Part shown: positions 577 to 17,604 of the stretch, piece by piece
How the letters are laid out: each line of letters opens with the position of its first letter
Numbering within the stretch: position 1 is the stretch's first letter
Source of the DNA: an uncultured virus (IMG/VR IMGVR_UViG_2630968826_000003)
Lineage: Duplodnaviria; Heunggongvirae; Uroviricota; Caudoviricetes
Virus record (IMG/VR): IMGVR_UViG_2630968826_000003
Direction: 5' to 3' (one strand)
DNA length: 20,000 nt
Notes under the pieces: model-generated
The model's database searches: none
What the model was told of the DNA's origin: nothing
The model's input: the letters and a program-made list of their open reading frames with translations, nothing else
Made by a program: the position numbers and the translations under genes

Positions 577-978
577 TTAGTGAAAAGCGGGTTGTGTAGT
601 GACGGCTGAATAATTCGGTGCCGGAATAAGGTGAAGCTCATAGGTTGTCCGCCACCACTCCTGGATCAGCGCCTTTATCTCGCCAACACCCAGCGCCCCG
701 GCTGTATAGAAAATTGCGCGAATCCCCGCCAGCGCTTCAATCTGTGCCTCTTTGCTCTCAGCTTCGCGGTACACGCAGCACCAGAAAGCGGCATTGATCG
801 CCAGCCAGTGGCGCTGGTTAGTCATGTGTTCGGTGTCATTGAAGAAGAATGGATGCAACGCAATGCGGCCATTTTTACTGGCGCTTTTCTCTGCAAATGC
901 TACCGCGTAGTTATGTGGGACACCCCACACAGCCAGTTCAGCCCCCAACGATTTACCCTCTACGGAAATAATGCTCAT
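577..978 (-). CDS. Phage hypothetical protein (early operon)
   Basis: 133-aa ORF whose start overlaps the upstream stop (translational coupling). Confidence 0.75.
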   Translation of the reverse strand: MSIISVEGKSLGAELAVWGVPHNYAVAFAEKSASKNGRIALHPFFFNDTEHMTNQRHWLAINAAFWCCVYREAESKEAQIEALAGIRAIFYTAGALGVGEIKALIQEWWRTTYELHLIPAPNYSAVTTQPAFH

Positions 979-1403
979 TAGTGATTCCCCTGCTGCAATT
1001 TATGGACAATATGAGGTGCGATAATCATCTGCACTTTGTTCCTGGTATTAATGGGATGGACGATTTTTACTGGACGTTCAGCGGTTCGTCTGGAGAAATC
1101 ACTGTCCCGTAAACTCCCGAATCCGCTAAAAGTTAAACGAGCACGGGAAATTCCCTGGCGCAGCTGTATCATGTCCCGATACTCCAACCGCTCAAAAAGT
1201 TCTCGCCAGCAACAATTACTTAAGCTGCGTTTAAAAACGCCGGATCTGGAATTGATTGCAGCAGCATGAAGAACCACCCCGCGCCATTCTGGTGTCAGGT
1301 TGTCCCACCATTCAGCGGCTTCACTGCTAGTACTGAAATATTTGCGCCGAATCTTTTTAAGATGATCCAGCCCACGCTTTTGCTGCTCATGGTTAATTGC
1401 CAT
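978..1403 (-). CDS. Phage early protein, weakly reminiscent of DUF5347/P2 protein B
   Basis: ORF track 978..1415; ATG at 1403 (MAINHEQ) after a G-rich RBS is preferred; sits directly downstream of fil. Confidence 0.6.
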   Translation of the reverse strand: MAINHEQQKRGLDHLKKIRRKYFSTSSEAAEWWDNLTPEWRGVVLHAAAINSRSGVFKRSLSNCCWRELFERLEYRDMIQLRQGISRARLTFSGFGSLRDSDFSRRTAERPVKIVHPINTRNKVQMIIAPHIVHKLQQGNH

Positions 1404-1620
1404 AACGCCCCCCAACCATTCCCAGCAGGCGGCGGGTTTTAGTCGTCAGGAAACGCAGAACAGAACCGCCCTTCATCTGGACAGACTCATGTGCATTGAA
1501 TTTATAGGTGTGACCAGGATTCCAGCGCTGGCCGTTCGGCAGTTCTATCCAACCGGTTGAACCACTGGGTAACTGCATAGCCGGTGATTCTTTTTTCAGG
1601 TAAGTCACAAACGCTTTCAT
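1393..1620 (-). CDS. fil: Phage 186 Fil-like filamentation protein
   Basis: LKKESPAMQ..GWIELPNGQRWNP resembles 186 Fil (LVKQSPGMH..GWI..DGKRWHP); directly after cII. Confidence 0.7.
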   Translation of the reverse strand: MKAFVTYLKKESPAMQLPSGSTGWIELPNGQRWNPGHTYKFNAHESVQMKGGSVLRFLTTKTRRLLGMVGGRYGN

Positions 1621-1629
1621 AATGTTCCC

Positions 1630-2133
1630 TCACATCAGGCCAGTGGCATTCGTCGTGACCAGATCCACCGCTGCGGCTAAAACCGGCGCAGAATGGATAC
1701 GGCTTTCAACGGTGTAAGCCAACACGGAAAGGCTACGGATAGCATCGCGAGCGCGATCAAGAATTTGTGTACGGCGGGCGGCGGTCATGTGCTCTGTTGA
1801 TACCGCTTCCCCAGCAATCGCGCCCACACTGGCGGTAGCGCTCAACGCGCAAAACTGCATATTCGCTTCAGTTGCGTTATTTACCGGCACTGATGGCAAA
1901 CAATTAATTTGCGAAAGCATTCCATCCAGCAGACGCGCATCTTCTGTATGGTCAGTAATGGCCAGAAGTTCATCACAGGTCAGGCGATGCGGTTGTAACG
2001 GATTTAACTTATTGCGTAACAACTGTGGTCTCATACCAACGGCAGCGGCCACATCTTCCAGATTGTGTGCTAGCGCGAACGCTCGGCAAGCGGCATTAAA
2101 GTGCGCATGTTTAGAAGTCTGATAATCAAACAT
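1630..2133 (-). CDS. cII: Phage 186-type CII transcriptional activator
   Basis: MFDYQTSKHAHFNAACRAFA..LRNKLNPLQPHRLT..TEDARLLDGML closely resembles 186 CII; true start is the ATG at 2133 (167 aa). Confidence 0.9.
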   Translation of the reverse strand: MFDYQTSKHAHFNAACRAFALAHNLEDVAAAVGMRPQLLRNKLNPLQPHRLTCDELLAITDHTEDARLLDGMLSQINCLPSVPVNNATEANMQFCALSATASVGAIAGEAVSTEHMTAARRTQILDRARDAIRSLSVLAYTVESRIHSAPVLAAAVDLVTTNATGLM

Positions 2134-2170
2134 AGTTTTATCCCTAAAAATATTTAATATTGATAAGGAG

Positions 2171-2374
2171 TTAAGAAACCCACGGACTTTGGTCTGCAGT
2201 CCATGCCAGCCAATCGACATAAACCCGCTCGCCGCGTTTATCTTTTGGTTTGATCTTCAGACGACCATTTTGATACCAATAGCGGGCGCGACGCAGGGGA
2301 ACGCCGGAACGTTCACAAAAGGTGTTTAAATCTACCCAACGGTTTTCGCTATATGTTGAAACGGTGGATGTCAT
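2171..2374 (-). CDS. Apl/Cox-like repressor-excisionase (winged HTH)
   Basis: 67 aa, first gene of the lytic operon, divergent from cI; excisionase-like basic HTH with a wing (GRLKIKPK..RVYVDW). Confidence 0.75.
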   Translation of the reverse strand: MTSTVSTYSENRWVDLNTFCERSGVPLRRARYWYQNGRLKIKPKDKRGERVYVDWLAWTADQSPWVS

Positions 2375-2398
2375 AAGGCAAAATCCTCTAACTATGGC

Positions 2399-2445
2399 TG
2401 TCAGTCAGTGTCAATGTTTGGTAGCCAGTGTGAATCGATGTAAGG
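2399..2445. repeat. Five 10-bp-periodic TGTCAGT-like direct repeats (putative Apl/Cox sites in the switch region)
   Basis: TGTCAGT, TGTCAAT, TGGTAGC, TGTGAAT, TGTAAGG at 2399, 2409, 2419, 2429, 2439; the same motif recurs near att at 4124-4160. Confidence 0.6.
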
Positions 2446-2491
2446 TTTTAGTGTTCATGAGCATGGTATGAACACTAAAATGAAATGTCAA
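2446..2491 (-). promoter_or_regulatory. Lytic promoter (pR-like) overlapped by a 13-bp inverted repeat (putative CI operator)
   Basis: Minus strand TTGACA (2491-2486)-17 bp-TACCAT (2468-2463); IR TTTTAGTGTTCAT-N9-ATGAACACTAAAA at 2446-2480. Confidence 0.7.
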
Positions 2492-2510
2492 CAAAAAATG
2501 ACAACTTTAG

Positions 2511-3086
2511 GTGTTCACTATGAATTTAGAGACGGGTGCGCGTGAGGCTATCGAACGCATATGTGAGGTTTACGGATTCACATCGCGTAACCAATTAGCT
2601 AAACATATTGGAATCACTAACAGTTCGCTTGGTAATAGGATAATGCGGGATAACTTTCCAGCAGATATTGCAATTAGATGTGCGCTTGAAACAGGGGCCG
2701 CATTGCATTGGCTTGTTACAGGCGATGGCCCGAAATTCGATCATGCCTTCAGTGATACCGTAAGAATTCCTTCATATAAATTTGAAGGAACAAAATTGGT
2801 GAAAACAGCATCATTTTTGTTCGATAAGGCAATGCTTCCCGACCACGTAGGCAACCCGGAAATCATCACCGAAGGAAACGCCAAATATCTGGTTGATAGA
2901 GCCGACTACCCCGCTGCCGATGGCAAATATCTGATTGAATACTCCGAAACCCAAAGCATTAAAGAACTAACACTATTACCGGGTAATAAGCTGCGCATCG
3001 ACTGGGGAAAATACCCGCTCGATTGTGAAATCGGCGACGTAAAAATAATAGGCAAAGTCATCATGACGATGGTGGTTAACACTTAA
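2511..3086 (+). CDS. cI: Phage 186-type CI immunity repressor
   Basis: AIERICEVYGFTSRNQLAKHIGI..RDNFPAD..CALETGAALHWLVTG is the 186 CI N-terminal HTH; start may be ATG 2520; stop overlaps the int start. Confidence 0.9.
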   Translation: MFTMNLETGAREAIERICEVYGFTSRNQLAKHIGITNSSLGNRIMRDNFPADIAIRCALETGAALHWLVTGDGPKFDHAFSDTVRIPSYKFEGTKLVKTASFLFDKAMLPDHVGNPEIITEGNAKYLVDRADYPAADGKYLIEYSETQSIKELTLLPGNKLRIDWGKYPLDCEIGDVKIIGKVIMTMVVNT

Positions 3087-4096
3087 TGGCGGTTCGTAAA
3101 ATAGACTCTGGCGAATGGCTATGCGACCTGCGGCCTACTGGCGTCAAGGGAAAACGCATTCGCAAAAAATTTGCCACTAAAGGCGAAGCGCTGGCTTATG
3201 AAAAATACATTGCCAGCGAAATGGAAGAAAAGCCATGGTTAGGTGAAAAGCAAGATAATCGACGACTATCAGAACTGATTGAACAGTGGCACGACCTTTA
3301 CGGCCGTACACTCTCTGATGCGGATCGGATGATGTCAAAATTGAAAGGTATCTGTGCGGGCATGGGCGATCCCATAGCGGCACAAATCACATCCGCAGAT
3401 TTTAGCCAATATCGTGAGGGCCGATTAAAAGGTGAAATTCCCGATGTTAACGGTCGACTAATGCCGATACAGCCCCAGACGGTAAATCATGAGCAGCGCA
3501 ACCTCTCAGCTGTATTTGGTACGCTAAAAAAACTGGGGCACTGGTCATTACCTAATCCTCTGGCAGGTATTCCAACATTCAAAGTTGATGAAAAAATGGT
3601 TTCTTTTTTGTACCCAGAAGAGATCAAAAGCCTGCTGCAATACCTATCAGAATCAAGCAGTGATAGCGTACTTATAATCACCAAAATCTGCTTGGCTACA
3701 GGGGCCAGATGGAGTGAGGCCGAAAATTTAGAAGGTGCGCAGGTCACGCCGTATCGGATAACCTACAAGAACACCAAAAATGGAAGAGTCAGATCGATTC
3801 CTATCTCGAAAGAACTGTATGACGAAATTCCGAAAAAACGTGGGCGTTTGTTCACGCCATGCCGTAAGACTTTTGAACGAGTAGTGGCTAAAGCGGGCAT
3901 TGAGTTACCTGACGGGCAATGCACACACGTACTGCGTCATACATTTGCCAGTCATTTTATGATGAACGGTGGAAACATCCTTGTCCTCAAAGAAATACTT
4001 GGGCATTCAGATATAAAAATGACAATGATTTACGCACATTTCGCGCCTACACATTTAGAAGATGCTGTACTTAAAAACCCTTTGGCTAACCTTTAA
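3086..4096 (+). CDS. int: P2/186/HP1-family tyrosine integrase
   Basis: 336 aa; TGARWSE, HVLRHTFASH, LGHSDIKMTMIYAH catalytic motifs; adjacent to att. Confidence 0.95.
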   Translation: MAVRKIDSGEWLCDLRPTGVKGKRIRKKFATKGEALAYEKYIASEMEEKPWLGEKQDNRRLSELIEQWHDLYGRTLSDADRMMSKLKGICAGMGDPIAAQITSADFSQYREGRLKGEIPDVNGRLMPIQPQTVNHEQRNLSAVFGTLKKLGHWSLPNPLAGIPTFKVDEKMVSFLYPEEIKSLLQYLSESSSDSVLIITKICLATGARWSEAENLEGAQVTPYRITYKNTKNGRVRSIPISKELYDEIPKKRGRLFTPCRKTFERVVAKAGIELPDGQCTHVLRHTFASHFMMNGGNILVLKEILGHSDIKMTMIYAHFAPTHLEDAVLKNPLANL

Positions 4097-4099
4097 CGA

Positions 4100-4195
4100 G
4101 ATCCACATAGTGTCCATTCAGCGTGTCAGTGGCTGTTATTAATTGTCAGTGATTGTTAATCATCCCTTTGATTTATAACATAACTCATTGTTTTT
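4100..4195. promoter_or_regulatory. Phage att arm: Int arm-type, Apl/Cox and IHF-like sites
   Basis: ATCCACA/TGTCCAT pair (~4101-4117); TGTCAGT/TGTTATT/TGTCAGT/TGTTAAT at 10-bp period (4124-4160); IHF-like TAACTCATTGTTT at 4181. Confidence 0.5.
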
Positions 4196-4212
4196 CTGTA
4201 CCTATTGGAAGA

Positions 4213-4257
4213 ATGTAGGAATTTCGGACGCGGGTTCAACTCCCGCCAGCTCCACCA
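4213..4257 (+). repeat. Duplicated 3' end of ssrA (tmRNA): attR of the prophage and left att of the second island
   Basis: ATGTAGGAATTTCGGACGCGGGTTCAACTCCCGCCAGCTCCACCA matches the enterobacterial tmRNA 3' T-arm/acceptor end; upstream sequence is not ssrA, so this is a fragment. Confidence 0.93.
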
Positions 4258-4291
4258 CTTTTTAGTTGTTTGAAGTACAATGAAGTCTACT

Positions 4292-4325
4292 AAGCCCGCA
4301 TGGAACCAGCCTTGCGGGCTTTTTT
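4292..4325 (+). terminator. Rho-independent terminator after the ssrA fragment
   Basis: AAGCCCGCA-N12-TGCGGGCTT followed by a T-run. Confidence 0.85.
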
Positions 4326-4370
4326 ACGTCTATAGTAGTCTAGTGAGAATTGCTGAGAACTATCACTTAT

Positions 4371-4420
4371 GGCACCCTGAATGGGACCCACAACGAAGGG
4401 TCCTAAAATCGAGGGTCCCA
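4371..4420. promoter_or_regulatory. Putative integrase arm-binding repeats
   Basis: GGCACCC, GGGACCC, GGGTCCT, GGGTCCC clustered immediately before the int start codon. Confidence 0.5.
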
Positions 4421-4422
4421 AA

Positions 4423-5652
4423 ATGGCAAAAATCGCTAAGAAGCTCACTGACACTGAAATCAAAAGCACCAAGCCAGCCGACAAAGAAATCAACTTGTTT
4501 GACGGAGATGGTTTGATACTACGAATCGCTCCCCTCTCGAAAGGAGGGAAGAAGAATTGGTATTTCAGGTATGCAGTGCCAGTGACCAAAAAGCGAACTA
4601 AAGTAAGCTTAGGAACCTATCCTCATCTTACACTTGCCAAGGCACGAGCTTTACGTGAAGAATACCTTTCCTTGCTTGCCAATGGCATTGATCCTCAAGT
4701 CCATAACAACGATAAAGCTAATGCCTTAAAGAACGCCACTGAACATACTCTCCAAGCCGTGGCAAGGAAATGGTTGGAGGAGAAGGTAAAGACCTCAGGT
4801 ATCTCACAAGACCATGCAGAAGACATCTGGCGAAGCCTGGAGAGAAATATCTTTCCCGGCTTGGGTAATGTTCCTGTCAATGAGATTCGACCCAAACTCT
4901 TAAAGCAACATCTTGACCCTATTGAGCAACGAGGAGTCCTCGAAACTTTACGGCGAATCATTTCCCGCCTGAATGAAATTTTCCGCTATGCAGCAACAGA
5001 AGAACTCATAGAGTTCAATCCGGCTGACAACCTGGGGCAACGGTTCAGTAAGCCTAAAAAACAGAATATGCCAGCATTACCCCCTTCCGAATTACCCCGC
5101 TTTCTATTGGTGTTAAACAATGCCTCTGTCCGTTTGGAGACTCGATTGCTGATTGAATGGCAGTTACTGACCTGGGTTCGTCCTGGTGAAGCTGTACGCA
5201 CAAGATGGGCTGATATAGATATCGATAATTCAGTGTGGAACATCCCAGCTGAGTTTATGAAAATGAAGAAGCCTCACAAAGTTCCACTAAGCAAAGAAGC
5301 TTTGAGAGTCCTGGAGTCAATGAAAGCGATAAGTGGGCATCGTGAATGGGTGTTTCCAAGCATAAAGGCTCCTCTTAACCATATGCATGAACAAACAGCT
5401 AATGCGGCCATAATCCGTATGGGCTTTGGGGGAGAGCTTGTAGCCCATGGAATGAGATCAATAGCACGTACGGCCGCAGAGGAGTCTGGTAAATTCAGAA
5501 CAGATGTCTTAGAAGCGGCCCTTGCCCACTCGAAGAAAGATGAAATAATTGCAGCTTACAATCGTGCTGAGTATCTCGCTGAACGAGTTGGTCTCATGCA
5601 GTGGTGGAGTGATTATTTGCGGTCTCAAAGACACAAAAGTATTGCGGCCTGA
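4423..5652 (+). CDS. intA: CP4-57 IntA/SlpA-like (P4-family) tyrosine integrase
   Basis: MAKIAKKLTDTEIKSTKP..LFDGDGL arm-binding domain; VRPGE, HGMRSIART, LAH, AYNR motifs; start at 4423 preferred (409 aa). Confidence 0.92.
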   Translation: MAKIAKKLTDTEIKSTKPADKEINLFDGDGLILRIAPLSKGGKKNWYFRYAVPVTKKRTKVSLGTYPHLTLAKARALREEYLSLLANGIDPQVHNNDKANALKNATEHTLQAVARKWLEEKVKTSGISQDHAEDIWRSLERNIFPGLGNVPVNEIRPKLLKQHLDPIEQRGVLETLRRIISRLNEIFRYAATEELIEFNPADNLGQRFSKPKKQNMPALPPSELPRFLLVLNNASVRLETRLLIEWQLLTWVRPGEAVRTRWADIDIDNSVWNIPAEFMKMKKPHKVPLSKEALRVLESMKAISGHREWVFPSIKAPLNHMHEQTANAAIIRMGFGGELVAHGMRSIARTAAEESGKFRTDVLEAALAHSKKDEIIAAYNRAEYLAERVGLMQWWSDYLRSQRHKSIAA

Positions 5653-5999
5653 ATAAAAAAATTTTTAAAGAAAACAATAGAATACTCAAAAATAAACTCT
5701 CTGTATATTGTACCTATTATACTTCTTTAAAAATCAAAGGATATCAATGTATATGCAGAGATGCACCCTTAATAAATGTTTCAACTAAAGATCCAATATA
5801 TGAAACCAATATACACAACATGTAAAGATGATGCCTATGCTTAGTAAGCATCTTTACACAATGAATTCACTGCCATTCATTTTTTAGCAATCCGATCAAA
5901 CCTTGATTTTGTCAAATTTCAGTTTAGATAAAACACTAATCTTATACAAAACTTCATTGAAGGAACAATTCCCCCCCTGAAAATTAACCATGAAACCTT

Positions 6000-7412
6000 C
6001 TACTTCAAATCAGCCAGTTCTTTTTCTTTTATAAATTTTGTTTTCACCCCCAACAAACTATATATATAACCACCACGTTCAATTAACCTATCATCGTTTG
6101 TTAGGAAGTAATCAGCTTTCCAAGCATGTGCTAAATGCTGAACATCCTGGTAGCTCGATAGTATTTTTTTCTTATCACGAACCCTTTCAGTTTTATAATT
6201 AATAATATCTAAAAATTCGCTAACTCTCTCTATAATTTCAACATAATCGAAGTCTTTATCAACACTAATTCTCCCTGCTTTCATGTCCTCTAGATCGAAT
6301 TGGTTTGTTATATTCAACAAAACACTTTGTAAAAAATCGAAAAAACTGGCATTGATATCATTTATCATGATATTTTTTGTAGAATCAATAGCCATGAAAA
6401 AATCAGATATATCATCATTGATTTTTGAAACTATTCTGCTATCTTTTCGTACAAATGGATATGCGAAATAGTTTAATTTAGCTTTATAATACTTTATATT
6501 TTCAGCAACCGAAGTCGCAGGTAACCATTCAATAACTCTATTAACCAAAGTATAAAACTCTTCTTTCACATAGCGTATTTCATTATTAACCTTGGAAATA
6601 AAAACACCATTTGTAAGTTTTAATACTTGTGCCAAGTATAAATTAAAATATACATAATCCATTTTAATCCCATCTTCAACCAAATAAGGACTAAACACAA
6701 ACACATACTCACCACTTTCTTTTAAAGAATTCAAAAGCGACCGGAGTTTTTTATTTTTCTCAGAACAATATGCACTAATAATATTTTGATCTATATATAC
6801 AACTTTTTTATTGTGAAGTAAATTCTCTGCATCAACTTGCTCATACTCTATTAGCTGATCAACAGCTAATGAAGCGTAATTTGATATGTCATCACATGAT
6901 TGAATTTTTTTATAAGAAAAATACTCCACCATAAAAGCATTATAATTAGCATCAATGGAAGAGTAAAACTTTGTTAGTTCATTCCTCATATCATCATCTT
7001 TTAAAACAAAATGCATGAAACTATAGTTCTTATATAAACTACAAATAACAATCTCCATAGGGACATTACTATTAAAACCAAAAATGCGTAAAATTTCGCT
7101 ATAAAAAATGTCATTATCCTTTATAAGAGTTTCGCAATTCATTTTGAAATCACTTAGCTTACTACTAATCATACAAAGATCATAATAATGCACAGAAAAA
7201 TCATTATTTATTGGGAGGCTTATTTCCTTTATTTTATCAATGTTATTTTTAGTGAAATCTGAAATTACTTGTGATAAATCGCAGTATGTTTTGTATTTAT
7301 CCGTATAAGTATAATCGATTAGATGATATAAATCACTACTAATTAGATCAATATACTCAGTCAATATAACCAATGCAGATTTTGATAAAATTTTAATATG
7401 GTCAATTTCCAT
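6000..7412 (-). CDS. Hypothetical protein with a C-terminal PIN-like ribonuclease domain
   Basis: 470 aa; VYIDQNII..SPYLVED..DVQHLAHAWKADYFLTNDDRL matches the PIN acidic-residue pattern; N-terminal ~195 aa unrecognised. Confidence 0.65.
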   Translation of the reverse strand: MEIDHIKILSKSALVILTEYIDLISSDLYHLIDYTYTDKYKTYCDLSQVISDFTKNNIDKIKEISLPINNDFSVHYYDLCMISSKLSDFKMNCETLIKDNDIFYSEILRIFGFNSNVPMEIVICSLYKNYSFMHFVLKDDDMRNELTKFYSSIDANYNAFMVEYFSYKKIQSCDDISNYASLAVDQLIEYEQVDAENLLHNKKVVYIDQNIISAYCSEKNKKLRSLLNSLKESGEYVFVFSPYLVEDGIKMDYVYFNLYLAQVLKLTNGVFISKVNNEIRYVKEEFYTLVNRVIEWLPATSVAENIKYYKAKLNYFAYPFVRKDSRIVSKINDDISDFFMAIDSTKNIMINDINASFFDFLQSVLLNITNQFDLEDMKAGRISVDKDFDYVEIIERVSEFLDIINYKTERVRDKKKILSSYQDVQHLAHAWKADYFLTNDDRLIERGGYIYSLLGVKTKFIKEKELADLK

Positions 7413-7486
7413 TTGAAGTTCCTTTAAGATTAATTATTAAAATTTAGAATAAAAACCATTAAACCATTGAAGCTAATACTGATAAT

Positions 7487-8608
7487 TTACTTATAATAAC
7501 TAGAAATACAATTTCTCACATAGTTTCTAAAGGAAATCAAACTAAAATGTCTAGCACAAGTGCCTTTTGCATTTTCTGATATCCATTTTTCTTTATCATC
7601 TAACCATCTATCAACAAAATAATCTCTTAGATTTTCATCACTTATTCTTAAGCAAAAAATACAATCGCTAACTAATGCTGATGTCCCTTTAAACACAACG
7701 GTTTTTCCTAACACCCGTGTCCCGACCCGCGCAACTAAAATGTCATTTTTTAATGCAATGCCATCATAAGAATTAAAATTTGTTTCTTTTTCTGTTAGAA
7801 TGCTATCAAATGATGTAGTGTGGAAATAAGGTAATCCTGAATTTCGGCATTCCTTTCCTGATTTTTTTCCTCGAAATAAAAGAAACTTATCATCAAACTC
7901 TTCGGAAGCATCAGGAAATTGGTTTTTAAAAATAAAATCCATATTAGATAAATATATCTCGCAACCATTCTTTTCAAATGCAATTTGAGATTGTTTTCTG
8001 GAAAAAACATTCCTAATATGATAGATATGGGTTTTAGCCTCTGTTTTCTTAAATGCTTTATGCTCGCATTCTATAATTTTACTTACAGAAAAGTTGTTAA
8101 TCAAATACTCACGCAACCATGAATAACTTAATGAAGAAAAAAATATATCGGGTAGTATAATTGCAAGCTCACCGGAAGATTTAAGTTTTTTAAGATTTAA
8201 AAGCAAAAAAACTATCTCAGCTCTTACTTTATCACCTTTGAATTTCTTACCAGTCATATCAAAAACCAGTGAAGATATATAAGAGTTGATAACTATACTT
8301 TTGAATGGTGGGTTACATAAAGCGATATCAAAAGATGAATCGTTGATTAAATCACACAGTTCTGGCAATGTAGAATCACCGCATAAAACATTAACATCTG
8401 GATATTTACCCCTAAGATAGGAAGCATTTTTATAATCTATATCCACTGCAGTAACATGCACTTTTGGGTATTTTTTGAGCACAGCATCAATTAAAGCGCC
8501 CTCTCCGGCACTCAATTCCAAACAATTTGAAGGTCGAGCTATCTGGATTAACGCAGCAAGTTTATCACTCACTTCTCGCTCGGTATAAAACTGTTTAAAT
8601 TCAACCAC
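7487..8608 (-). CDS. N6-adenine DNA methyltransferase (gamma-type motif order) with a C-terminal TRD-like segment
   Basis: QFYT (motif X), LELSAGEGAL (motif I), NPPF (motif IV), LAIILP, F..TEAKT; C-terminal NDILVARVG..GK resembles HsdS-type TRDs. Confidence 0.85.
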   Translation of the reverse strand: MVEFKQFYTEREVSDKLAALIQIARPSNCLELSAGEGALIDAVLKKYPKVHVTAVDIDYKNASYLRGKYPDVNVLCGDSTLPELCDLINDSSFDIALCNPPFKSIVINSYISSLVFDMTGKKFKGDKVRAEIVFLLLNLKKLKSSGELAIILPDIFFSSLSYSWLREYLINNFSVSKIIECEHKAFKKTEAKTHIYHIRNVFSRKQSQIAFEKNGCEIYLSNMDFIFKNQFPDASEEFDDKFLLFRGKKSGKECRNSGLPYFHTTSFDSILTEKETNFNSYDGIALKNDILVARVGTRVLGKTVVFKGTSALVSDCIFCLRISDENLRDYFVDRWLDDKEKWISENAKGTCARHFSLISFRNYVRNCISSYYK

Positions 8609-8685
8609 TTATTTTCAATCTATCGTTTGAGAAACTCTTATGCTATATTACTTTAAATACCTTTTAAAATCAAAGAGATTAAAGG

Positions 8686-10386
8686 ATGAACAAACAAATT
8701 TCTACAGACCTTTTGGAAGGGCTTGACGGGTTTGAGTTTGAAGAACGTGCTGATTACCTTCCACCGTCTATACTTGCTAAATGGTCACCTAACAATAAAC
8801 ATTTTAGAGCAATACAAAAAAAACTAACACAAGTTGGAGCAAAACTCTTAGTAGGTCCTCGTGGTGCAGGCAAAACTCACTACATGAGACACGCTTATCT
8901 TGATTGCAAAGAAAACAAAAATCTTCCACTCCCTCTCTATGTTTCCTTCAATCATTATCTCCGACTTGAAACTTATATTCACGAAACATCAAATGCAATT
9001 GAAATATTTCATGCATGGGTTCTCGCAAAGATAGTATTAGCTTGTTATGATGATTATAACATTTTTCCTTTTGAGGAAATCACTATTGATGATATCAAAA
9101 ACTTTATTTTGGACATTGAAAAACAAAATTATAAAACCGAGCATAATAAAGTTATAACATCGCTTAGTATTGAATCGACACAAGATATTATTGATACCTG
9201 TGCTAATAAACAAGGTCGTAAAAGAACCGTCCTTTTTTTTGACGATGCAGCCTTAACACTTACAAAAGAATATATGGTTGAATTTTTCGATATATTTCGA
9301 AGCATAAAGACATCCAGAATATCTCCAAAAGCATCTGTTTATCCAGGGACAACACAATATGGCCCAAGATTTCATGTTGGTCAGGATGCTGAACCAGTTA
9401 TGATTTGGCAAGAGGTAGATCAAAGCGATTATATCAATTTCATGCTGGAACTTGTCAAAGAGAGGTTTAACAACATCCCTCAAATTGATACTGAAATAAA
9501 CCAACTACTTATTTATGCTTCTTTCGGTATACCGAGGGCTTATATAAACTTAGTTAGAGCTTATAGTGAGTCGAATGCAAAAACAAAGCAATCGAAATTT
9601 AATATGGTTATTGAAGAGAGATGCAAATATTTATATGATGAGTATATATCCATAATAGACAAACTTCCCCAATATGGTGTTTATGTAAAATCCGGTTGGG
9701 ATTTCTTTTATAAAATAGTTTCAGATTTAAAGGAAATCAATCACATTAACATCCGAAAAGATGGTGTTAATTATAAAAAAATTGTCTCTATTGGTATTGA
9801 AGATCTTAATACTGATAAAATTGAAAGAGTTATTAGTTTTCTCATAGAAGCTGGACTTTTGTACGATTTATCCAGTACATCACACGGAGTAGGTAGAACC
9901 TTACGAAGATTCACACCTCATTATGCTTTTTTAATTAAAGAAAAAATCTTCTCAGTAAGCAGAGGTTTTAACGCTACGAATTTAGTTACTATTTTAGATG
10001 CTCCCTCAGAAAAGCATCCTTTGAGAAGATCAATGTATTCTTTAATTACAAAACAAAACTATGAAGCAATTTCACTAACACTTCCTAACTGTTCTAATTG
10101 CGGTGCAAAAAGATTAGCAGACAATCAAAAATTTTGTCATCAATGTGGTAAGCAACTTGTGGATGAATCTGCATTTCGCTTGTGCATGAAAAAGAACTTA
10201 GTAGAACTTCCTTTGACGGATTTCCAGAAATCAGTCATAAAGCAAACAAATTTCAAAACTGTTGAAGATGTTATATCTTCCAAAAACACTGCAACTGAGT
10301 TTATGAAAGTTAAACAAGTTGCTCAAAAAAGAGCGGCAACTCTGGAATTTAAAGTAAGAACTTGGGTTAACGAATTTTTAGCATAA
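8686..10386 (+). CDS. P-loop ATPase (ORC/CDC6/STAND-like) with C-terminal zinc ribbon and HhH/alphaCTD-like domain
   Basis: Walker A GPRGAGKT, Walker B VLFFDD, GIPR motif, CSNC..CHQC, C-terminal ELPLT..KTVEDVI..KVKQVAQKRA. Confidence 0.8.
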   Translation: MNKQISTDLLEGLDGFEFEERADYLPPSILAKWSPNNKHFRAIQKKLTQVGAKLLVGPRGAGKTHYMRHAYLDCKENKNLPLPLYVSFNHYLRLETYIHETSNAIEIFHAWVLAKIVLACYDDYNIFPFEEITIDDIKNFILDIEKQNYKTEHNKVITSLSIESTQDIIDTCANKQGRKRTVLFFDDAALTLTKEYMVEFFDIFRSIKTSRISPKASVYPGTTQYGPRFHVGQDAEPVMIWQEVDQSDYINFMLELVKERFNNIPQIDTEINQLLIYASFGIPRAYINLVRAYSESNAKTKQSKFNMVIEERCKYLYDEYISIIDKLPQYGVYVKSGWDFFYKIVSDLKEINHINIRKDGVNYKKIVSIGIEDLNTDKIERVISFLIEAGLLYDLSSTSHGVGRTLRRFTPHYAFLIKEKIFSVSRGFNATNLVTILDAPSEKHPLRRSMYSLITKQNYEAISLTLPNCSNCGAKRLADNQKFCHQCGKQLVDESAFRLCMKKNLVELPLTDFQKSVIKQTNFKTVEDVISSKNTATEFMKVKQVAQKRAATLEFKVRTWVNEFLA

Positions 10387-10397
10387 AAGGCTTTCAC

Positions 10398-11240
10398 ATG
10401 GCTAACAAAAAATTCACATACAGTATATCAGGAACAAAGGTAACACCAAATATTAATACTATTGATTTCTTTGACAAAGAATATCAAGAACCTGATATCG
10501 CCCCTATTGACATTTACAATAAAAAGAAAGACATACATATAAAATTATTAGGTGAGCCCAGTGAATCTTCAGAATGGAAATTGCTGGTTAATTTAGTAAT
10601 GCTTGGATTTGTCTCCCTTGTTGAAAGCTATTGTCGTTGCATTATTCGTAGGATACTAATTACAGATAAGCAAGCAAGATCCTGTAGCTATAAAAATAAT
10701 GTTAGCTATGCTGCTGCTGTTTATCATAGCAAAGATATATTACCGGAGGCATTGCTCGAAGATGCTTCTTTTATTTCAGAAGCAAACATTCTAGAAACTA
10801 TAAAAACTTTTACTGGTTTAAAAATTGATCGCCAGAAAGCTGCCTCAGTTATCTCAGCCTTACAAAAATATGATCAAATTTGCCAACTGAGACATTGTAT
10901 TGTCCATAGATCGGGATTATTTGGCACTAAAAATGCTATTAAGTTGGGCTTGGAAAAACATCATTTATTTCTTGAAAAACCAATAATCATAGGCTATGAG
11001 GCTATACAGTCTATTGCATCTGTTTGTGATAACGTTGTTAAGGAGTTAAACGATGAGCTATTTAATTTACTTTTGGATGGTATTGCCGAACAATATGATT
11101 GGACAGGTGACTTAAGGAAAGACAAGAAAATGTTCTCACCATATTTTGAGATATTTTATTCATCAATAGCAAATCCAAACAAAACAGAGGAACTTAAAAA
11201 ATGTTATCACGCATTCTGTCAACATTTCGGTTTTAAATAA
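10398..11240 (+). CDS. HEPN-domain protein (putative RNase effector)
   Basis: VSLVESYCR helix plus RHCIVH (RxxxxH) motif; 11 bp downstream of the ATPase. Confidence 0.75.
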   Translation: MANKKFTYSISGTKVTPNINTIDFFDKEYQEPDIAPIDIYNKKKDIHIKLLGEPSESSEWKLLVNLVMLGFVSLVESYCRCIIRRILITDKQARSCSYKNNVSYAAAVYHSKDILPEALLEDASFISEANILETIKTFTGLKIDRQKAASVISALQKYDQICQLRHCIVHRSGLFGTKNAIKLGLEKHHLFLEKPIIIGYEAIQSIASVCDNVVKELNDELFNLLLDGIAEQYDWTGDLRKDKKMFSPYFEIFYSSIANPNKTEELKKCYHAFCQHFGFK

Positions 11241-11312
11241 ATAATTGAAGCTTTAACTTTAAGTTAAAGTGTGAAATGTGAGCAAGAAACACATGATTTT
11301 ATATGAGGCCTT

Positions 11313-11777
11313 ATGAAAAAGAATAGCACTGATAACTTAATTGAATTTAGATACATGGGTTATTTCTTACTTGCTGTGATATTACTTCCTTTATTGTCTA
11401 TGCTTGTGTACATTTCATTCAACTCTGAATGGATGACCAACAATCCAAAATCTTACCTTTTAGGATACATTTTATTTTCTTCTTTTTGTCTGATTCGTTT
11501 GTTTATATTGAGAGGCTCTTATAAATATGCTAATGATTTAATTCTAGCGATTTCTGCCGGTTGGATAGGAACAAGTTATTTAACAACAGGCCAAAAAACA
11601 TTTGATGAACTACCATCTTTGGATTTATTAAAGGATAACCCTTTTTTATTCTATGCAATAGCATTTAAATTTATTTTAGTTTGTAGTAGTTTAATATCAA
11701 AAATCGTTATAACTTTAATTGAATTCATTCGCGCATGGATACAAGAGGAGAAAGATTTCAACGGCATCAATGCTTAG
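11313..11777 (+). CDS. Hypothetical membrane protein (~4 TM)
   Basis: 154 aa with about four hydrophobic stretches; GAGG RBS. Confidence 0.7.
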   Translation: MKKNSTDNLIEFRYMGYFLLAVILLPLLSMLVYISFNSEWMTNNPKSYLLGYILFSSFCLIRLFILRGSYKYANDLILAISAGWIGTSYLTTGQKTFDELPSLDLLKDNPFLFYAIAFKFILVCSSLISKIVITLIEFIRAWIQEEKDFNGINA

Positions 11778-12399: not shown

Positions 12400-12662
12400 A
12401 TGCGTAAAGCCCGTTTTACTGAGCATCAGATCATCACTGTGATTAAGTCGGTTGAAGCTGGACGAACCGTTAAAGATGTCTGCCGGGAGGCCGGTATCTC
12501 TGAGGCCACCTACTATAACTGGAAGTCCAGATACGGCGGCATGGAAGCTTCTGATATTAAAAAGATAAAAGATCTTGAGGACGAGAACCGACGCCTCAAA
12601 CAGATGTTTGCCGACCTGAGCCTTGAGAACCGGGCGCTGAAAGACGTTATCGAAAAAAAGCT

Positions 12663-12666
<4 letters not shown>
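12400..12666 (+). CDS. IS3-family transposase OrfA
   Basis: MRKARFTEHQII..VCREAGISEATYYNWK HTH; ends at the A7G -1 frameshift motif. Confidence 0.92.
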
Positions 12667-14693
<2,027 letters not shown>

Positions 14694-14777
14694 TGAGGCA
14701 CCTGTAATGTTCTGAGGTGAGCATATCACCTCTGTTCAGGTGGCCAAATTCAGTAAACCACTTCATCCTCTGCTCTA

Positions 14778-14807
14778 TTGCTAACCACATGAATATGATC
14801 ATAAAAT
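14778..14807 (+). promoter_or_regulatory. Putative sigma70 promoter of the RT locus
   Basis: TTGCTA-18 bp-TAAAAT immediately before the structured region. Confidence 0.5.
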
Positions 14808-14809
14808 AT

Positions 14810-15124
14810 CCCCGCTAGTACCTAGGAGAGAGCTCCTCGCAAAAGCTTGATGGTCTGCTCGTCAGCCATCGTGGAGGCTTCGGCCTCTATTCTCTCCCCA
14901 CACGACGCATGCCACACGTTCTCAATGTTCCAACGTTACGATGCTAACGCATCACCAACGCTCTGGTACTTGCTGTAACAGTTGGGATTGCCGGATTGTG
15001 GCGAGGGGACGTCACACAGTGACGTCGAATACTGGGGTTAATTGCTGAACATCTCTTATTCCTGTCAGTTCAGGCGAGGCCGGTAACCATAGTGGTGACC
15101 GGGAACTGAGAAGGAGATGTAATT
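14810..15124 (+). ncRNA. RT-associated structured ncRNA (atypical retron msr-msd-like leader)
   Basis: ORF-free and GC-richer, with nested helices: GGAGAGAG/TTCTCTCC (14825/14890), GATGG/CCATC, GAGGC-TTCG-GCCTC, GCCACA/TGTGGC, CCAAC/GTTGG, GTTAC/GTAAC, GATGC-TAAC-GCATC, GACGTCAC-ACA-GTGACGTC, and a long hairpin at 15049-15120. Confidence 0.8.
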
Positions 15125-15352
15125 ATGAGTCGTAAGACACGTAAACGTCGAAAGACAAATACAAGTCGAAAGACACGTAAAAAATACCAGGCTAGTGTTC
15201 AGCAAACGTTTTGTGTGAAGGAAAGACTAAAGAAATACTCCAAAGATGCCGGTAAGCTCTTGTTTACCTTAGTTATCAGCGAAGTGATTTCTGCTGTTTT
15301 TCATTCTGAAGCTGTTGCCTCCATCTTTGCATCCATCAAGGGATTCCTGTAA
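15125..15352 (+). CDS. Small protein with Arg/Lys-rich N-terminus and hydrophobic C-terminal helix; candidate RT-system effector
   Basis: 75 aa, AAGGAG RBS at 15111, lies between the ncRNA and the RT. Confidence 0.7.
   Translation: MSRKTRKRRKTNTSRKTRKKYQASVQQTFCVKERLKKYSKDAGKLLFTLVISEVISAVFHSEAVASIFASIKGFL
15128..15181 (+). repeat. Three imperfect 18-bp tandem repeats, each with a GTC-GNRA-GAC mini-hairpin
   Basis: AGTCGTAAGACACGTAAA / CGTCGAAAGACAAATACA / AGTCGAAAGACACGTAAA. Confidence 0.75.
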
Positions 15353-15382
15353 TGGAGGCTATAATGGATAGGAACAACAACG

Positions 15383-16342
15383 ATGAAAAGCACAAAACGT
15401 ACCCCTAGTCTTCAAAGTCCCCCAAAGATTTATCCCCTGAATCAATCGCCTCTATTCAAGCTTAAAAATAAAAGAAAATTACTTGAAATCATAGGGCTAT
15501 CCAAGAAACAAGCAGACAAGCTAATGCTTGACTCAGCGTACAAAGAATTTGTAAATGATGCCGGAAGGACAATACAGGAACCAATTGCTCAGCTCAAAGC
15601 GGTTCATAGGAAAATCGGCGTTTTATTGAGCAGAATCGAACTACCTCCATATCTTCACTCTGGTCGGAAGAAGCATTCAACACTTACTAATGTAGAATCA
15701 CATAAGCTAGCAACTGAACTTCTGAAACTCGACATTCATAAGTTTTTCCCCTCGACTAGGGCTGCAAAGGTCTACAAGGCACTTGTAGAAAAATTTGAGA
15801 TGTCACCTGATGTATCTTATATCATGACCAATCTCTCAACCTTTGCAGGAAAAGTGCCCACAGGCAGTCCGATAAGCATGGCTATGGCGTTTTGGGCCAA
15901 TAAAGACATGTTCGACGAGCTTAGCAACCTTGCGGCCTCAAACAGCTTAGTATTTACGGCATATGTTGACGATGTGGCGTTCTCTGGTTCGAAAATCCCA
16001 AAAGGATTTGCCGCCCAAGCTAAAAAATGTATTCGTTCCCATGGACTCACCTCTAAAGACAAAAAAGAGCGATTTTATCCGTCATCAGAGGGAAAGCTGC
16101 TTACGGGGATAGTCATTCGGGATGGGGAACTTAAGGTACGTTGGGCACATAACGATTCAATCGGAAAAGAATTCGCTACTTTGGCTGAAGCAAAAGACAA
16201 CGCTACAAAAATAATCCATCTAGAAAAGCTAGCAGGTAAGCTGCATGCAGCCGGTCAGGTTGACTTCAGACAAAAAGATAGAGCTCGTTTTTTTACACAG
16301 CAGCTCAAAGCCGCAAAAAAGCGCTCAGAACAAGGTACTTAA
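15383..16342 (+). CDS. Retron-like reverse transcriptase
   Basis: 319 aa; RTIQEP, NVESH (region X NAxxH-like), LDIHKFFPS, PTGSPIS, YVDD, LTG (region Y VTG-like); no maturase/endonuclease extension. Confidence 0.92.
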   Translation: MKSTKRTPSLQSPPKIYPLNQSPLFKLKNKRKLLEIIGLSKKQADKLMLDSAYKEFVNDAGRTIQEPIAQLKAVHRKIGVLLSRIELPPYLHSGRKKHSTLTNVESHKLATELLKLDIHKFFPSTRAAKVYKALVEKFEMSPDVSYIMTNLSTFAGKVPTGSPISMAMAFWANKDMFDELSNLAASNSLVFTAYVDDVAFSGSKIPKGFAAQAKKCIRSHGLTSKDKKERFYPSSEGKLLTGIVIRDGELKVRWAHNDSIGKEFATLAEAKDNATKIIHLEKLAGKLHAAGQVDFRQKDRARFFTQQLKAAKKRSEQGT

Positions 16343-16391
16343 AACAGCAAGTAGACTAAAAGTAATTATCGTGCCATACAAGGAAAATGAT

Positions 16392-17233
16392 ATGTTGTAT
16401 CACGTTGTTATTCAAAAGAAACCAGTAAAAACTGGCAAAGATGGTGCTGAAGAAAACAAAACAGATCTCACCAAAGAGCAGCTGGTTGCTCGCTTCATAG
16501 AACCTTACGAGCTAGGCAATCCAATTACAGTAAACGGCACGACTATTCAAACATCAGAAATCAACAGATTAACTGTTAAGGCTACTGAAACCAGCATTGA
16601 ATCTTTTATACCTGCGATAGAAGCAGAAGATCGAAATTCAAGTGTGATTATGTTTGGCGGACCGTCTTACCTAGAACGTGCGATATATCGAGCTCCTGAT
16701 GTAACTGATGAATTCATCACTGGTCCCGCTGGCAGCAAAAAATCGATCGCATCAAAAAAAAAACAAATAAATCAACAACAAACGCAAACTCTGACAAAGT
16801 TTTCATTGTTCACGGGCATGATGATGCAGCGAAGATCAAGACTGCTCGTTTTGTAGAACAATTGGATTACAAAGCTATTATTCTGCATGAACAAGCAAGC
16901 TCTGGTAGAACCATAATAGAGAAAATCGAGCAGTTTACTGATGTGGGATTTGCTGTTGTGCTATACACGCCGGACGATATAGGCAATGCCAAAGGCAATG
17001 CAGACGACCTACAGTTAAGAGCCCGTCAAAACGTTGTTTTCGAACATGGTTTTTTGATAGGTAAGTTAGGAAGAGATCGTGTAGTAGCTTTGGTTGATGG
17101 AGCAATAGAACTTCCGAATGATATTAGTGGGGTCGTCTACATAAAAATGGACGAGGCAAACGCATGGCATCTTCAGTTAGCCAAAGAAATGAAACAAGCT
17201 GGTTTTAACATTGATATGAACAAGCTTGTGTAA
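16392..17233 (+). pseudogene. TIR-like nucleotide-binding domain protein (CAP12/Pycsar-type TIR), frameshifted at an A10 run
   Basis: Start MLYHVVIQ after an AAGGA RBS; a -1 shift at A16754-16763 joins it to KVFIVHGHD..ILHEQ..TIIEK..FAVVLYTPDD..RARQNVVFEHG..LPNDISGVVY; ~280 aa if restored. Confidence 0.85.
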
Positions 17234-17320
17234 CCACTTGAAAATTACTGCCTTAATGTGACATTGACTCCCGCTACATTGCTCAAAGAGTCAGACAGTT
17301 AGTATTTGGTGTTGCTCTCA

Positions 17321-17333
17321 GCCAGCTCCACCA
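17321..17333 (+). repeat. Right att of the island (13-bp ssrA 3' end copy)
   Basis: GCCAGCTCCACCA identical to 4245-4257, followed by a terminator. Confidence 0.85.
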
Positions 17334-17366
17334 AATAATGATCCGGATACGTCCGGCGAAGTACAG

Positions 17367-17401
17367 AAAGCCCGCACAGCACAAGCTCTGCGGGCTTTTT
17401 T
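17367..17401 (+). terminator. Rho-independent terminator
   Basis: AAAGCCCGCA-N12-TGCGGGCTTT plus T-run; same stem as 4292-4325. Confidence 0.85.
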
Positions 17402-17604
17402 ACATCTATTGCCGCCTGGTGAGGATTGCAGAGAACCTTACGGACACTGGAGTCAAATGACGCGGTGGGTAAAGCGGCTGCGCGATGGGTGACAGGGCAA
17501 AACGCCAAAAGTCTCACCAATAACTCCCGAAAGAATTGGAATACGAGAGTCAAAGAAAATAGAACACTCACTGAGAGTCCTGCCTGGCTGGGGCAAAGCT
17601 CGCA

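Follow-up and report, generated by a model that had tools for sequence, protein, structure and literature searches.

In this study we characterize a retron-like locus in a 20,000-nucleotide (nt) stretch of DNA from an uncultured virus (IMG/VR record IMGVR_UViG_2630968826_000003), which we call the window. On its plus strand a structured leader is followed by a small open reading frame (ORF) at 15125-15352, encoding a protein of 75 amino acids (aa) that we term SP (small protein), and after a further 30 nt by a reverse transcriptase (RT) ORF at 15383-16342 encoding 319 aa. A first-pass annotation, made from the letters of the window alone, had proposed a 75-aa ORF and a 319-aa YVDD RT in one unit, and both ORFs were borne out, on the plus strand and at this spacing. 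The SP ORF is preceded by AAGGAG. Its product, a putative toxic effector, combines an arginine/lysine-rich N-terminus with a hydrophobic helical C-terminus and belongs to no family in Pfam, PADLOC or NCBIfam. The RT carries YVDD at residues 194-197, N103-x3-H107 and T241-G242, and its ratio of nonsynonymous to synonymous substitution rates (dN/dS) is 0.06-0.09. Inside the leader, a 43-aa ORF at 14847-14978 was rejected as protein-coding because neither its frame nor its length is preserved among relatives. As shown below, the locus is a real and expressed type VI-lineage retron whose form, conserved in enterobacteria, has no helix-turn-helix (HTH) gene.

Reverse transcriptase and phylogenetic position

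The RT was matched best, over its whole length, by the PADLOC model RT_VI (1.8e-78, 261.7 bits), with RT_III-A next at 132.9 bits. On RT_VI the RTs of HTH-bearing loci score 247-347 bits and those of the window's own clade 260-287 bits. The protein passes Pfam RVT_1 narrowly and stays under the cut-off of every retron model in NCBIfam (best retron_St85_RT, 99 bits against a cut-off of 235), so that it falls into no curated family there. Y194, V195, D196, D197, N103, H107, T241 and G242 are invariant in 21 aligned homologues; the NAxxH-like and VTG-like segments that had been read as retron marks in the first place, and the YVDD motif with them, thus stood up to comparison. Residue 104 is V in the window and A in most homologues.

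A maximum-likelihood tree (quick search) was calculated from 128 non-redundant RTs at a 95% identity threshold, with support from the Shimodaira-Hasegawa-like approximate likelihood ratio test (SH-aLRT). It was rooted on the most distant matches, one of which PADLOC calls type VII-A2; types IV and V lie outside the set. The window RT falls in a clade of 11 rows, every one of them without HTH (SH-aLRT 99), which is sister (support 86) to a clade of 63 rows, 59 of them HTH-bearing; further HTH-bearing clades branch outside. The sister clade contains Vibrio, Yersinia, Xenorhabdus and many enterobacterial loci of the order SP-HTH-RT, presumably including the two retrons Vpa2 and Sen3. Hence the RT is nested among type VI RTs, and both the profile scores and the tree support its assignment as a retron RT of the type VI lineage.

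Related loci and absence of the HTH gene

Of 116 RT protein clusters, one from Salmonella enterica with 405 sequences and 98% identity stands closest; others bear the names of Enterobacter, Cronobacter, Serratia, Leclercia, Kosakonia, Pectobacterium and Erwinia, and one that of E. coli. Loci were collected from species-representative genomes (80 kept of 177), metagenomes (80 kept of 267), IMG/VR (43) and 401 genomes of one family, 7 of which had a match. This yielded a near-clade set of 25 loci with RTs 44-99% identical to that of the window and, with the window included, 19 distinct upstream sequences among 26; L105, whose contig begins inside the RT, and the duplicates L081-L083 were left out. 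In all 25 relatives, which span several enterobacterial genera, an SP ORF stands immediately before the RT, and no HTH gene was found in any. SP is 48-81 aa long, mostly 67 or 75 aa; the shortest form (L085, 48 aa) overlaps the RT start and the longest is an 81-aa frameshifted reading in L092. The ORFs are intact except in L092, a low-coverage metagenome contig, and in L172, a provirus record.

The published order of type VI operons is non-coding RNA (ncRNA), SP, HTH, RT, according to the available parts of two preprints (bioRxiv 10.1101/2025.10.22.683967; bioRxiv 10.64898/2026.04.27.721009). We therefore looked for the third member of this series with a hidden Markov model (HMM) built from the HTH ORFs of six type VI loci. 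It matched 145 of 213 sources and found nothing in the six frames of the window, in any near-clade locus or in their flanks of 2.5-4 kb. The PADLOC model HTH_VI recognised both positive controls (3.3e-33 and 6e-36) but, of 19 ORFs of the window, not one. The 30-nt gap between SP and RT leaves no room for an HTH gene. On both models, then, the first-pass statement that no HTH ORF is present was correct.

Directly upstream of the unit lies an insertion sequence (IS) of the IS3 family, and the idea that its insertion had removed an upstream HTH gene was rejected, because relatives free of the IS have the same leader-SP-RT layout. These relatives align with the window from about 14775 onward, and since they share promoter and leader from there the IS has removed nothing that belongs to the unit. 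By comparison of these sequences the absence of HTH is real and lineage-wide and does not reflect IS damage. With the RT_VI score, the nesting in the tree and the lineage-wide lack of HTH all agreeing, the early description as a divergent type VI-like retron without HTH was right, and the locus is very probably a type VI-lineage retron that naturally does without this gene.

We also searched four carrier genomes with the HTH_VI profile and found generic partial hits of the XRE type and no full-length match; the best hit reached 62.6 bits over profile positions 2-65 of 92, when true HTH_VI proteins score 112-121 bits, and hits arose likewise in 13 of 14 control genomes. HTH seems to be missing from further clades of type VI RTs as well: L009, L010 and L015 with L011 and L136, and also L038, L125 and L166, from Pseudoalteromonas, Catenovulum and marine metagenomes, have an ORF of 60-88 aa abutting or overlapping the RT start. 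The label 'no HTH' changes 12 times on the tree, at least 7 changes being forced by well-supported branches, so that HTH loss seems to be recurrent in type VI; some of these labels may be misses of the HMM. In the available part of one preprint, about 78% of 158 type VI entries have HTH and about 22% do not, and among cl2075-like RTs 53 of 66 have both SP and HTH and 13 of 66 lack the full arrangement (bioRxiv 10.64898/2026.04.27.721009). HTH-less entries are thus on record and are not described there, and we found no text on them in that preprint or in the papers that full-text searches on type VI retrons returned.

Transcription and RNA ends

Two public RNA-seq runs (X21 and X22) with the same species label were mapped to the locus, with about 6% of each run sampled. 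Reads mapped numbered 13,000 and 8,832, of which 11,454 and 7,521 were at least 99% alike, pointing to a near-identical allele. Two further runs, X13 and X19, gave no reads and are uninformative here. On the sense strand, which is the strand of the RT and of the downstream gene, depth (X21; X22) rises from about 1.4 and 1.8 over 14761-14821 to 2,689 and 1,760 over 14822-14882 and reaches about 5,300-5,760 and 3,370-3,650 over 14883-15004. It then falls to 2,400-3,380 and 1,480-2,060 over 15005-15187, to 1,160-1,470 and 750-1,010 over 15188-15370 and to 725 and 562 over 15371-15431, and amounts to 19-77 and 36-111 in the body of the RT gene. The RNA of leader and SP is therefore 15-300 times as deep as the RT body.

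In X21, 371 molecules begin at 14825 and 630 at 14828; in X22, 417 begin at 14828. A first 3' end at 15034 was seen in 1018 molecules at a depth of 3491 (X21) and in 637 at 2209 (X22), about 29% of local depth; further 3' ends lie at 15402 (295 in X21, 167 in X22) and 15421. These ends delimit two plus-strand RNAs: an abundant short RNA of about 207-210 nt at 14825-15034, msr-msd-like and covered at a depth of 1760-5760, and a hybrid RNA of about 575 nt at 14825-15402, which joins the ncRNA to the SP coding sequence (CDS) and the spacer and ends about 20 nt into the RT gene. Roughly half of the molecules are of the short form, and the others read through SP to about 15402. The hybrid RNA has a depth of 747-3383 up to 15370, against 19-111 in the RT body, and only about 1-5% of transcription reaches the RT gene.

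A promoter just upstream of 14825 drives this very abundant, structured RNA. The promoter proposed initially has a sigma-70-like match, TTGCTA-18 nt-TAAAAT at 14778-14807 on the plus strand (9 of 12 positions), with a predicted start near 14814, and its -10 hexamer recurs at the same alignment position in diverged relatives as TAAAAT, TATGAT or TAGAAT. So far the proposal held. However, patterns of this type are no more frequent than expected by chance (4 sites found, 4.1 expected), and no RNA 5' end was seen near 14814. An alternative -10-like TAGTAC at 14816-14821 on the plus strand, within the conserved GCTAGTA, lies 7 nt before the main 5' end at 14828, and a TG stands two bases upstream of it in 9 of 16 aligned relatives. 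Judged from sequence and ends, either the transcript is trimmed to 14825/14828 or the real -10 might lie in GCTAGTA.

Minus-strand reads reach about 0.1% of sense over 14822-15004 but are, relative to sense, 10-30 times as frequent further on, at 1-3% over 15005-15370. They terminate at 15032-15036 and about 15398, positions that mirror the stretch of plus-strand RNA separating the two 3' ends (15035-15402). This signal may be a library artefact, an antisense RNA or complementary DNA (cDNA) made in vivo.

RNA structure

The leader (14814-15127) folds with a minimum free energy of -116.5 kcal/mol (z = -3.32), and none of 100 dinucleotide shuffles folds as well, so that the dense base pairing reported at first sight goes far beyond chance. 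A consensus obtained with RNAalifold from 16 sequences (15 distinct) comprises 12 helices with 77 pairs in total; pairing holds in 96.3% of cells and drops to 38-48% once the partners are slid. Two-sided changes affect 17 of the 77 pairs, a number reached in none of 500 shuffles, which marks the leader structure as conserved.

The 5' part is an msr-like domain on the plus strand (14824-14890) of three hairpins at 14824-14837, 14849-14870 and 14871-14890, the last being GGAGGC-UUCG-GCCUC, the UUCG hairpin that had been noted before. Helices 2, 4 and 5 of this domain are paired in 95.7-99% of cells, each with two-sided changes. A long imperfect msd-like arm follows (plus strand, 14891-15007), closed by helix 6 and variable in its interior, which is a candidate template for cDNA. 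The equivalent 111-133 nt form a long arm in all eight relatives folded, at -34 to -46 kcal/mol, despite their different interior sequence. The initial view that the leader lacks a single long msd stem had to be given up, since this arm forms one long hairpin in relatives and a long imperfect one here. The perfect 8-bp hairpin described at the outset, GACGUCAC-ACA-GUGACGUC (plus strand, 15008-15026), comes next and is kept in 15 of 16 aligned sequences. Two relatives differ in this region: in L005 (Erwinia persicina, 1518-1770) GC-rich, repetitive sequence replaces the 5' domain and the long arm, the 3' part of the leader being conserved from the 8-bp hairpin onward, and L097, from a metagenome, is the same as the Klebsiella michiganensis locus L003 except for a 22-nt deletion that takes away the last part of the long arm together with the 5' strand of the 8-bp hairpin.

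The plus-strand 17-mer GGGGTTAATTGCTGAAC at 15034-15050 is a signature of the clade. It is exact in the 25 near-clade loci and was absent, with up to two mismatches allowed and one strand searched, from all other type VI loci fetched. From 15049 to 15120 on the plus strand extends an arm that would sequester the ribosome-binding site (RBS) of SP, as ACAUCUCUU (15049-57) pairs with the Shine-Dalgarno region AGGAGAUGU (15112-20), and the inner helices pair 15063-71 with 15103-11 and 15080-89 with 15093-102 (helices 10-12 of the consensus). In L005 the RBS helix has the compensatory form ACAACUC/GAGUUGU, and five pairs of the apical helix show two-sided changes.

Pairing seems to extend into the SP gene. 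The codon-invariant stretch GUGUUCAGCAAACGUUUUGUGUG (plus strand, 15196-15217) is complementary to 15042-15052 and to 14838-14846 and is the predicted central node of the hybrid RNA. Codons 25-28 and 30 of SP (within 15197-15214) never vary, and a single codon is used throughout in 7 of 14 invariant degenerate codon columns in SP versus 8 of 121 in the RT. The fold of the leader-SP alignment has 108 pairs, 24 with two-sided changes, and its long-range helices are kept in 14-16 of 16 sequences. The predicted shape has three arms, like that described for the Vpa2 hybrid RNA. Just before the RT RBS, a further plus-strand helix, CCUCC/GGAGG, surrounds the SP stop codon (15319-15358; columns 555-559 with 591-595), its pair 556/594 being CG in six sequences, UA in five and UG in three.

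The ends of the RNA bear on a closing helix (14810-14820 with 15030-15037) that had been drawn in the first-pass annotation. A pairing of 5-6 bp, CUAGU(A)/(U)ACUGG (helix 1), is conserved, but the RNA begins, at 14825/14828, downstream of its 5' strand; the drawn helix is thus absent from the RNA that accumulates, and the CCCC included in it is not conserved. We saw no other prominent terminal repeat. Rfam, searched over 14000-17500 with E up to 1, gave no retron or otherwise relevant family, the hits being limited to a partial, terminator-like match to IsrM and a snoRNA match due to chance.

The small protein

The SP family comprises 33 clusters, all annotated as hypothetical and all enterobacterial where named, and a search of the ESM Atlas with SP gave no lead (best score 0.78). 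AlphaFold2 models SP with moderate confidence as one long helix and a short one (mean predicted local distance difference test score 69, predicted template modelling score 0.29). The dN/dS of SP is 0.08-0.39 in 19 of 20 usable pairs and 0.75 in one close pair, and one further pair gave no dS value. SP and RT are both under purifying selection on these alignments. The 75-aa and 67-aa forms differ by a 36-nt duplication of the arginine/lysine-rich N-terminal segment (15134-15169, direct repeat GTCGAAAGACA), the only length change noted between the two forms. From its position and conservation, its helical basic/hydrophobic build and the analogy with the SP toxins of Vpa2 and Sen3, we infer that SP might be the toxic effector of the system.

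Genomic surroundings

The window holds two IS3-family elements back to back at 12400-14765. The first (12400-13623, plus strand) contains N's and a disrupted orfB, and its orfA product (12400-12663) matches the PADLOC model 'DrmC' (3.8e-57); this model seems to recognise a transposase and is a likely source of false defence calls. The second (13603-14765, minus strand) has its transposase ORFs at 13603-14729 on that strand and its end, from comparison with relatives, near 14765, so that 13 nt separate it from the -35-like hexamer of the retron. At this junction L170 also has an IS-like end, which resembles that of the window without being identical to it. With the sequence from 14730 onward as query, bases 1-44 to 1-53 match IS-copy ends in numerous E. 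coli genomes. Among complete E. coli genomes, megablast matched this IS end only (query bases 1-53) and blastn of 14780-16342 matched nothing.

Downstream of the RT, the ORFs at 16392-16856 and 16862-17233 are two halves of a PDC-S35 gene (16392-17233) resembling Toll/interleukin-1 receptor (TIR) genes, which is split by a 2-nt insertion (AA at 16754-16755, within an A-run). The gene is intact (279 aa) in L090, L091 and L170 and split as in the window in L172. The split gene is still transcribed, with a depth of about 260-300 at 16408-16500 in the two runs. PDC-S35 stands downstream of the RT only in the Salmonella-like loci (the window and these four); because it is not kept beside the RT and other genera carry different genes there, we rejected the TIR-like gene as an effector or part of the system.

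To the right lie a phase-1 flagellin repressor gene (Pfam Flag1_repress) and a flagellin gene, which we take to be fljA and fljB, and from these genes and the best protein match we read the host as Salmonella-like. To the left lie a type II methyltransferase gene, an ORC/Cdc6-like ATPase gene, a second integrase gene and the end of a P2-like prophage; the neighbourhood of the retron is an integrase-borne island. This left part (4381-11777) begins with the second integrase, of the tyrosine type (4381-5652), continues with a 470-aa ORF without family (6000-7412) beside the methyltransferase gene (7487-8608) and the ATPase gene, whose product has a zinc ribbon (8686-10386), and ends with a 280-aa ORF and a 154-aa membrane-like ORF, both without family. 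These may be further defence genes. The P2-like prophage end (1630-4096) encodes a CII-like protein, a CI repressor and an integrase. A 53-kb IMG/VR 'provirus' record (G001) contains an identical RT gene, and its provirus call apparently extends into the neighbouring island. In L171/L096 and L098 a gene for a P4-type integrase lies directly downstream of the RT, which places the retron at the edge of integrative islands in some relatives.

Discussion

We propose that the locus is a functional anti-phage retron of the type VI lineage in an HTH-less form, with SP caged by RNA structure, and we give this reading a probability of about 70%. Type VI (Mestre et al. 2020; PADLOC retron VI) reportedly combines an RT on the type VI branch of retron RT clade 3, a small helical SP (clusters 2075, 2760, 3272 and 3897) and an adjacent Cro/C1-type HTH gene (cluster 2_1, PADLOC HTH_VI), usually overlapping the RT start. 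Here the RT branch, the SP gene and the hybrid RNA are present and the adjacent HTH gene is absent. In the studied members the HTH protein is essential. That of Vpa2 binds RT and RNA and represses reverse transcription, and its mutation is toxic (bioRxiv 10.1101/2025.10.22.683967); that of Sen3 is an antitoxin that neutralises SP and the central node of the system, and its loss is toxic (bioRxiv 10.64898/2026.04.27.721009), as far as the available parts of these sources go.

How might SP be restrained in a lineage without this protein? In the hybrid RNA the RBS of SP would be paired with the conserved upstream strand and the codon-invariant stretch would pair back to two leader segments, so that translation of SP would be held down by RNA structure. 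Upon phage infection the RT might copy the long arm (14891-15029) into single-stranded DNA, and either this synthesis or a loss of RNA integrity would open the structure. The small helical SP would then be made and the infected cell stopped (abortive infection). The tasks of HTH in Vpa2 and Sen3, repressing reverse transcription and neutralising SP respectively, would here be done by RNA structure together with very low RT expression. That control is of the Vpa2 type in particular is somewhat short of an even chance. It is also conceivable, if rather doubtful, that the lineage follows a third regulatory mode consisting of RNA, RT and small toxin only, in which the hybrid RNA alone keeps SP untranslated and the RT scarce. 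In the boldest version of this idea the minus-strand molecules at 15032-15398 would be cDNA of the SP-coding part. If true, the SP-coding part of a hybrid RNA would serve as cDNA template, a role that is not known from any retron.

Several points weigh against the proposal of a functional retron with caged SP. The RNA-seq data come from the allele of another strain, under unspecified growth conditions. The consensus structure was derived from the same alignment in which the changes were counted, most two-sided changes stem from the two most distant sequences (L005 and L085) and thus represent few events, and the long-range and RBS helices are nearly invariant and therefore show little covariation, the RBS helix having a single compensatory change, in one sequence. 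In the leader we could assign neither a canonical a1/a2 duplex nor a branching G; the a1 suggested initially lies outside the RNA seen. A generic XRE-type HTH encoded elsewhere in the genome may exist. HTH is indispensable in both studied type VI retrons, its mutation being toxic in Vpa2 and its role in Sen3 that of the antitoxin, and one would expect leakiness or lethality from a simple Vpa2-like circuit that lacks it. Finally, cDNA synthesis, phage defence and SP toxicity are inferred for the HTH-less lineage.

A different explanation starts from Sen3, which makes SP and single-stranded DNA constitutively and controls the toxin at the protein level (available part of bioRxiv 10.64898/2026.04.27.721009). 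SP of the window could likewise be made all the time, be neutralised by the RT or by an unlinked regulator of host or island, and be released by a phage trigger. The abundance of the SP part of the RNA would fit, SP evolves faster than the RT (dN 0.30 versus 0.08 between the window and L003), as might fit a co-evolving partner, and the carrier genomes hold many generic XRE HTH genes. However, there is no linked candidate partner, the flanking genes differ between genera, the four carrier genomes gave no full-length HTH_VI-like match, and the RBS-sequestering helix and the frozen codons point to control at the RNA level; we consider protein-level control unlikely. Far less probable is a decaying or domesticated remnant that lost HTH and is no longer a defence system, or serves only as an addiction module of the island. 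A degenerate neighbourhood with IS elements directly upstream and a frameshifted PDC-S35 beside it might suggest such decay, as might the absence of the accessory gene that defines type VI, for which PADLOC HTH_VI finds no partner, but the HTH-less layout is kept in 25 loci of several genera with the few damaged ORFs named above, RT and SP are under strong purifying selection, the leader is structured and conserved, and expression is high. We find it harder still to believe in a separate retron type whose RT merely resembles type VI and which has another template or product, for example cDNA from the SP part of the hybrid RNA: the minus-strand signal with its mirrored ends and the clade's own 17-mer could be read in this way, but minus-strand reads can stem from library preparation or an antisense transcript and are only putatively DNA, the RT is nested within type VI, and the cDNA of Vpa2 maps to the long msr-msd stem (available part of bioRxiv 10.1101/2025.10.22.683967), which has an equivalent arm here.

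The lineage is conserved, expressed and under selection, and its interest extends beyond this locus. The only two mechanistic studies of type VI, on Vpa2 and Sen3, both make HTH the hub, and this lineage lacks that hub. It is thus a natural test of how a small toxin-like protein is restrained without an HTH brake. A unit of 1.6 kb in easily handled enterobacteria offers a minimal system for asking what the coupling of reverse transcription to a translationally caged toxin really needs, and for retron engineering it provides an RT and a template RNA in compact form. Where annotation of whole systems makes HTH a requirement, such loci would probably not be called as complete type VI retrons, so that HTH-less units may be under-counted.

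Among known systems, classical retrons such as Ec86 (Retron-Eco1) share with the window a YxDD RT of about 320 aa, an accessory effector gene and an upstream ncRNA in which a long variable stem comes after short 5' hairpins. Unlike these retrons, the locus lacks a clear a1/a2 duplex at the RNA ends observed, its putative effector gene lies inside the structured RNA between ncRNA and RT, and it has no Rfam match. Retron-Eco12, a type VI retron of E. coli, is described in the available part of the source as defending against lambda-vir without detectable msDNA (bioRxiv 10.1101/2025.10.22.683967); identity with it was rejected, because even blastn finds no counterpart of 14780-16342 in the complete E. 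coli genomes searched.

The closest comparisons are with Retron-Sen3 and Retron-Vpa2, again within the available parts of the two reports. Retron-Sen3/cl2075 of Salmonella enterica (Garcia-Rodriguez et al.) differs in its order SP-HTH-RT, when no HTH is present here, and in its RT, as the catalytic DD lies at 193-194 versus 196-197. Both have an enterobacterial host, an SP CDS under RNA structural constraint, and an SP of similar size (79 versus 75 aa) that is extended at the N-terminus and has a hydrophobic helix at the C-terminus. In Retron-Vpa2 of Vibrio parahaemolyticus (Zhang et al.), SP and RT are separated by an HTH gene, which is missing here. The Vpa2 SP (about 51-55 aa versus 75 aa) is not alignable and the Vpa2 leader is called unrelated in sequence because the 17-mer is specific to the window's clade; the RTs of the Vibrio loci L007 and L025, used as stand-ins for Vpa2 itself, are only 38-39% identical to that of the window. 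What the two retrons share is the architecture: the RT lineage, a basic/hydrophobic SP gene after a structured leader, one enriched hybrid RNA that contains msr-msd and the SP CDS and stops before the next gene, an RBS and start codon held in a stem-loop arm, and conserved repeats that tie the arms to a central node. In both Vpa2 and Sen3, RNA enrichment extends over the ncRNA, the SP CDS and the spacer up to the RBS of the next gene (bioRxiv 10.1101/2025.10.22.683967; bioRxiv 10.64898/2026.04.27.721009). The RNA pattern of our locus is the same, with the RT in the place of their HTH gene.

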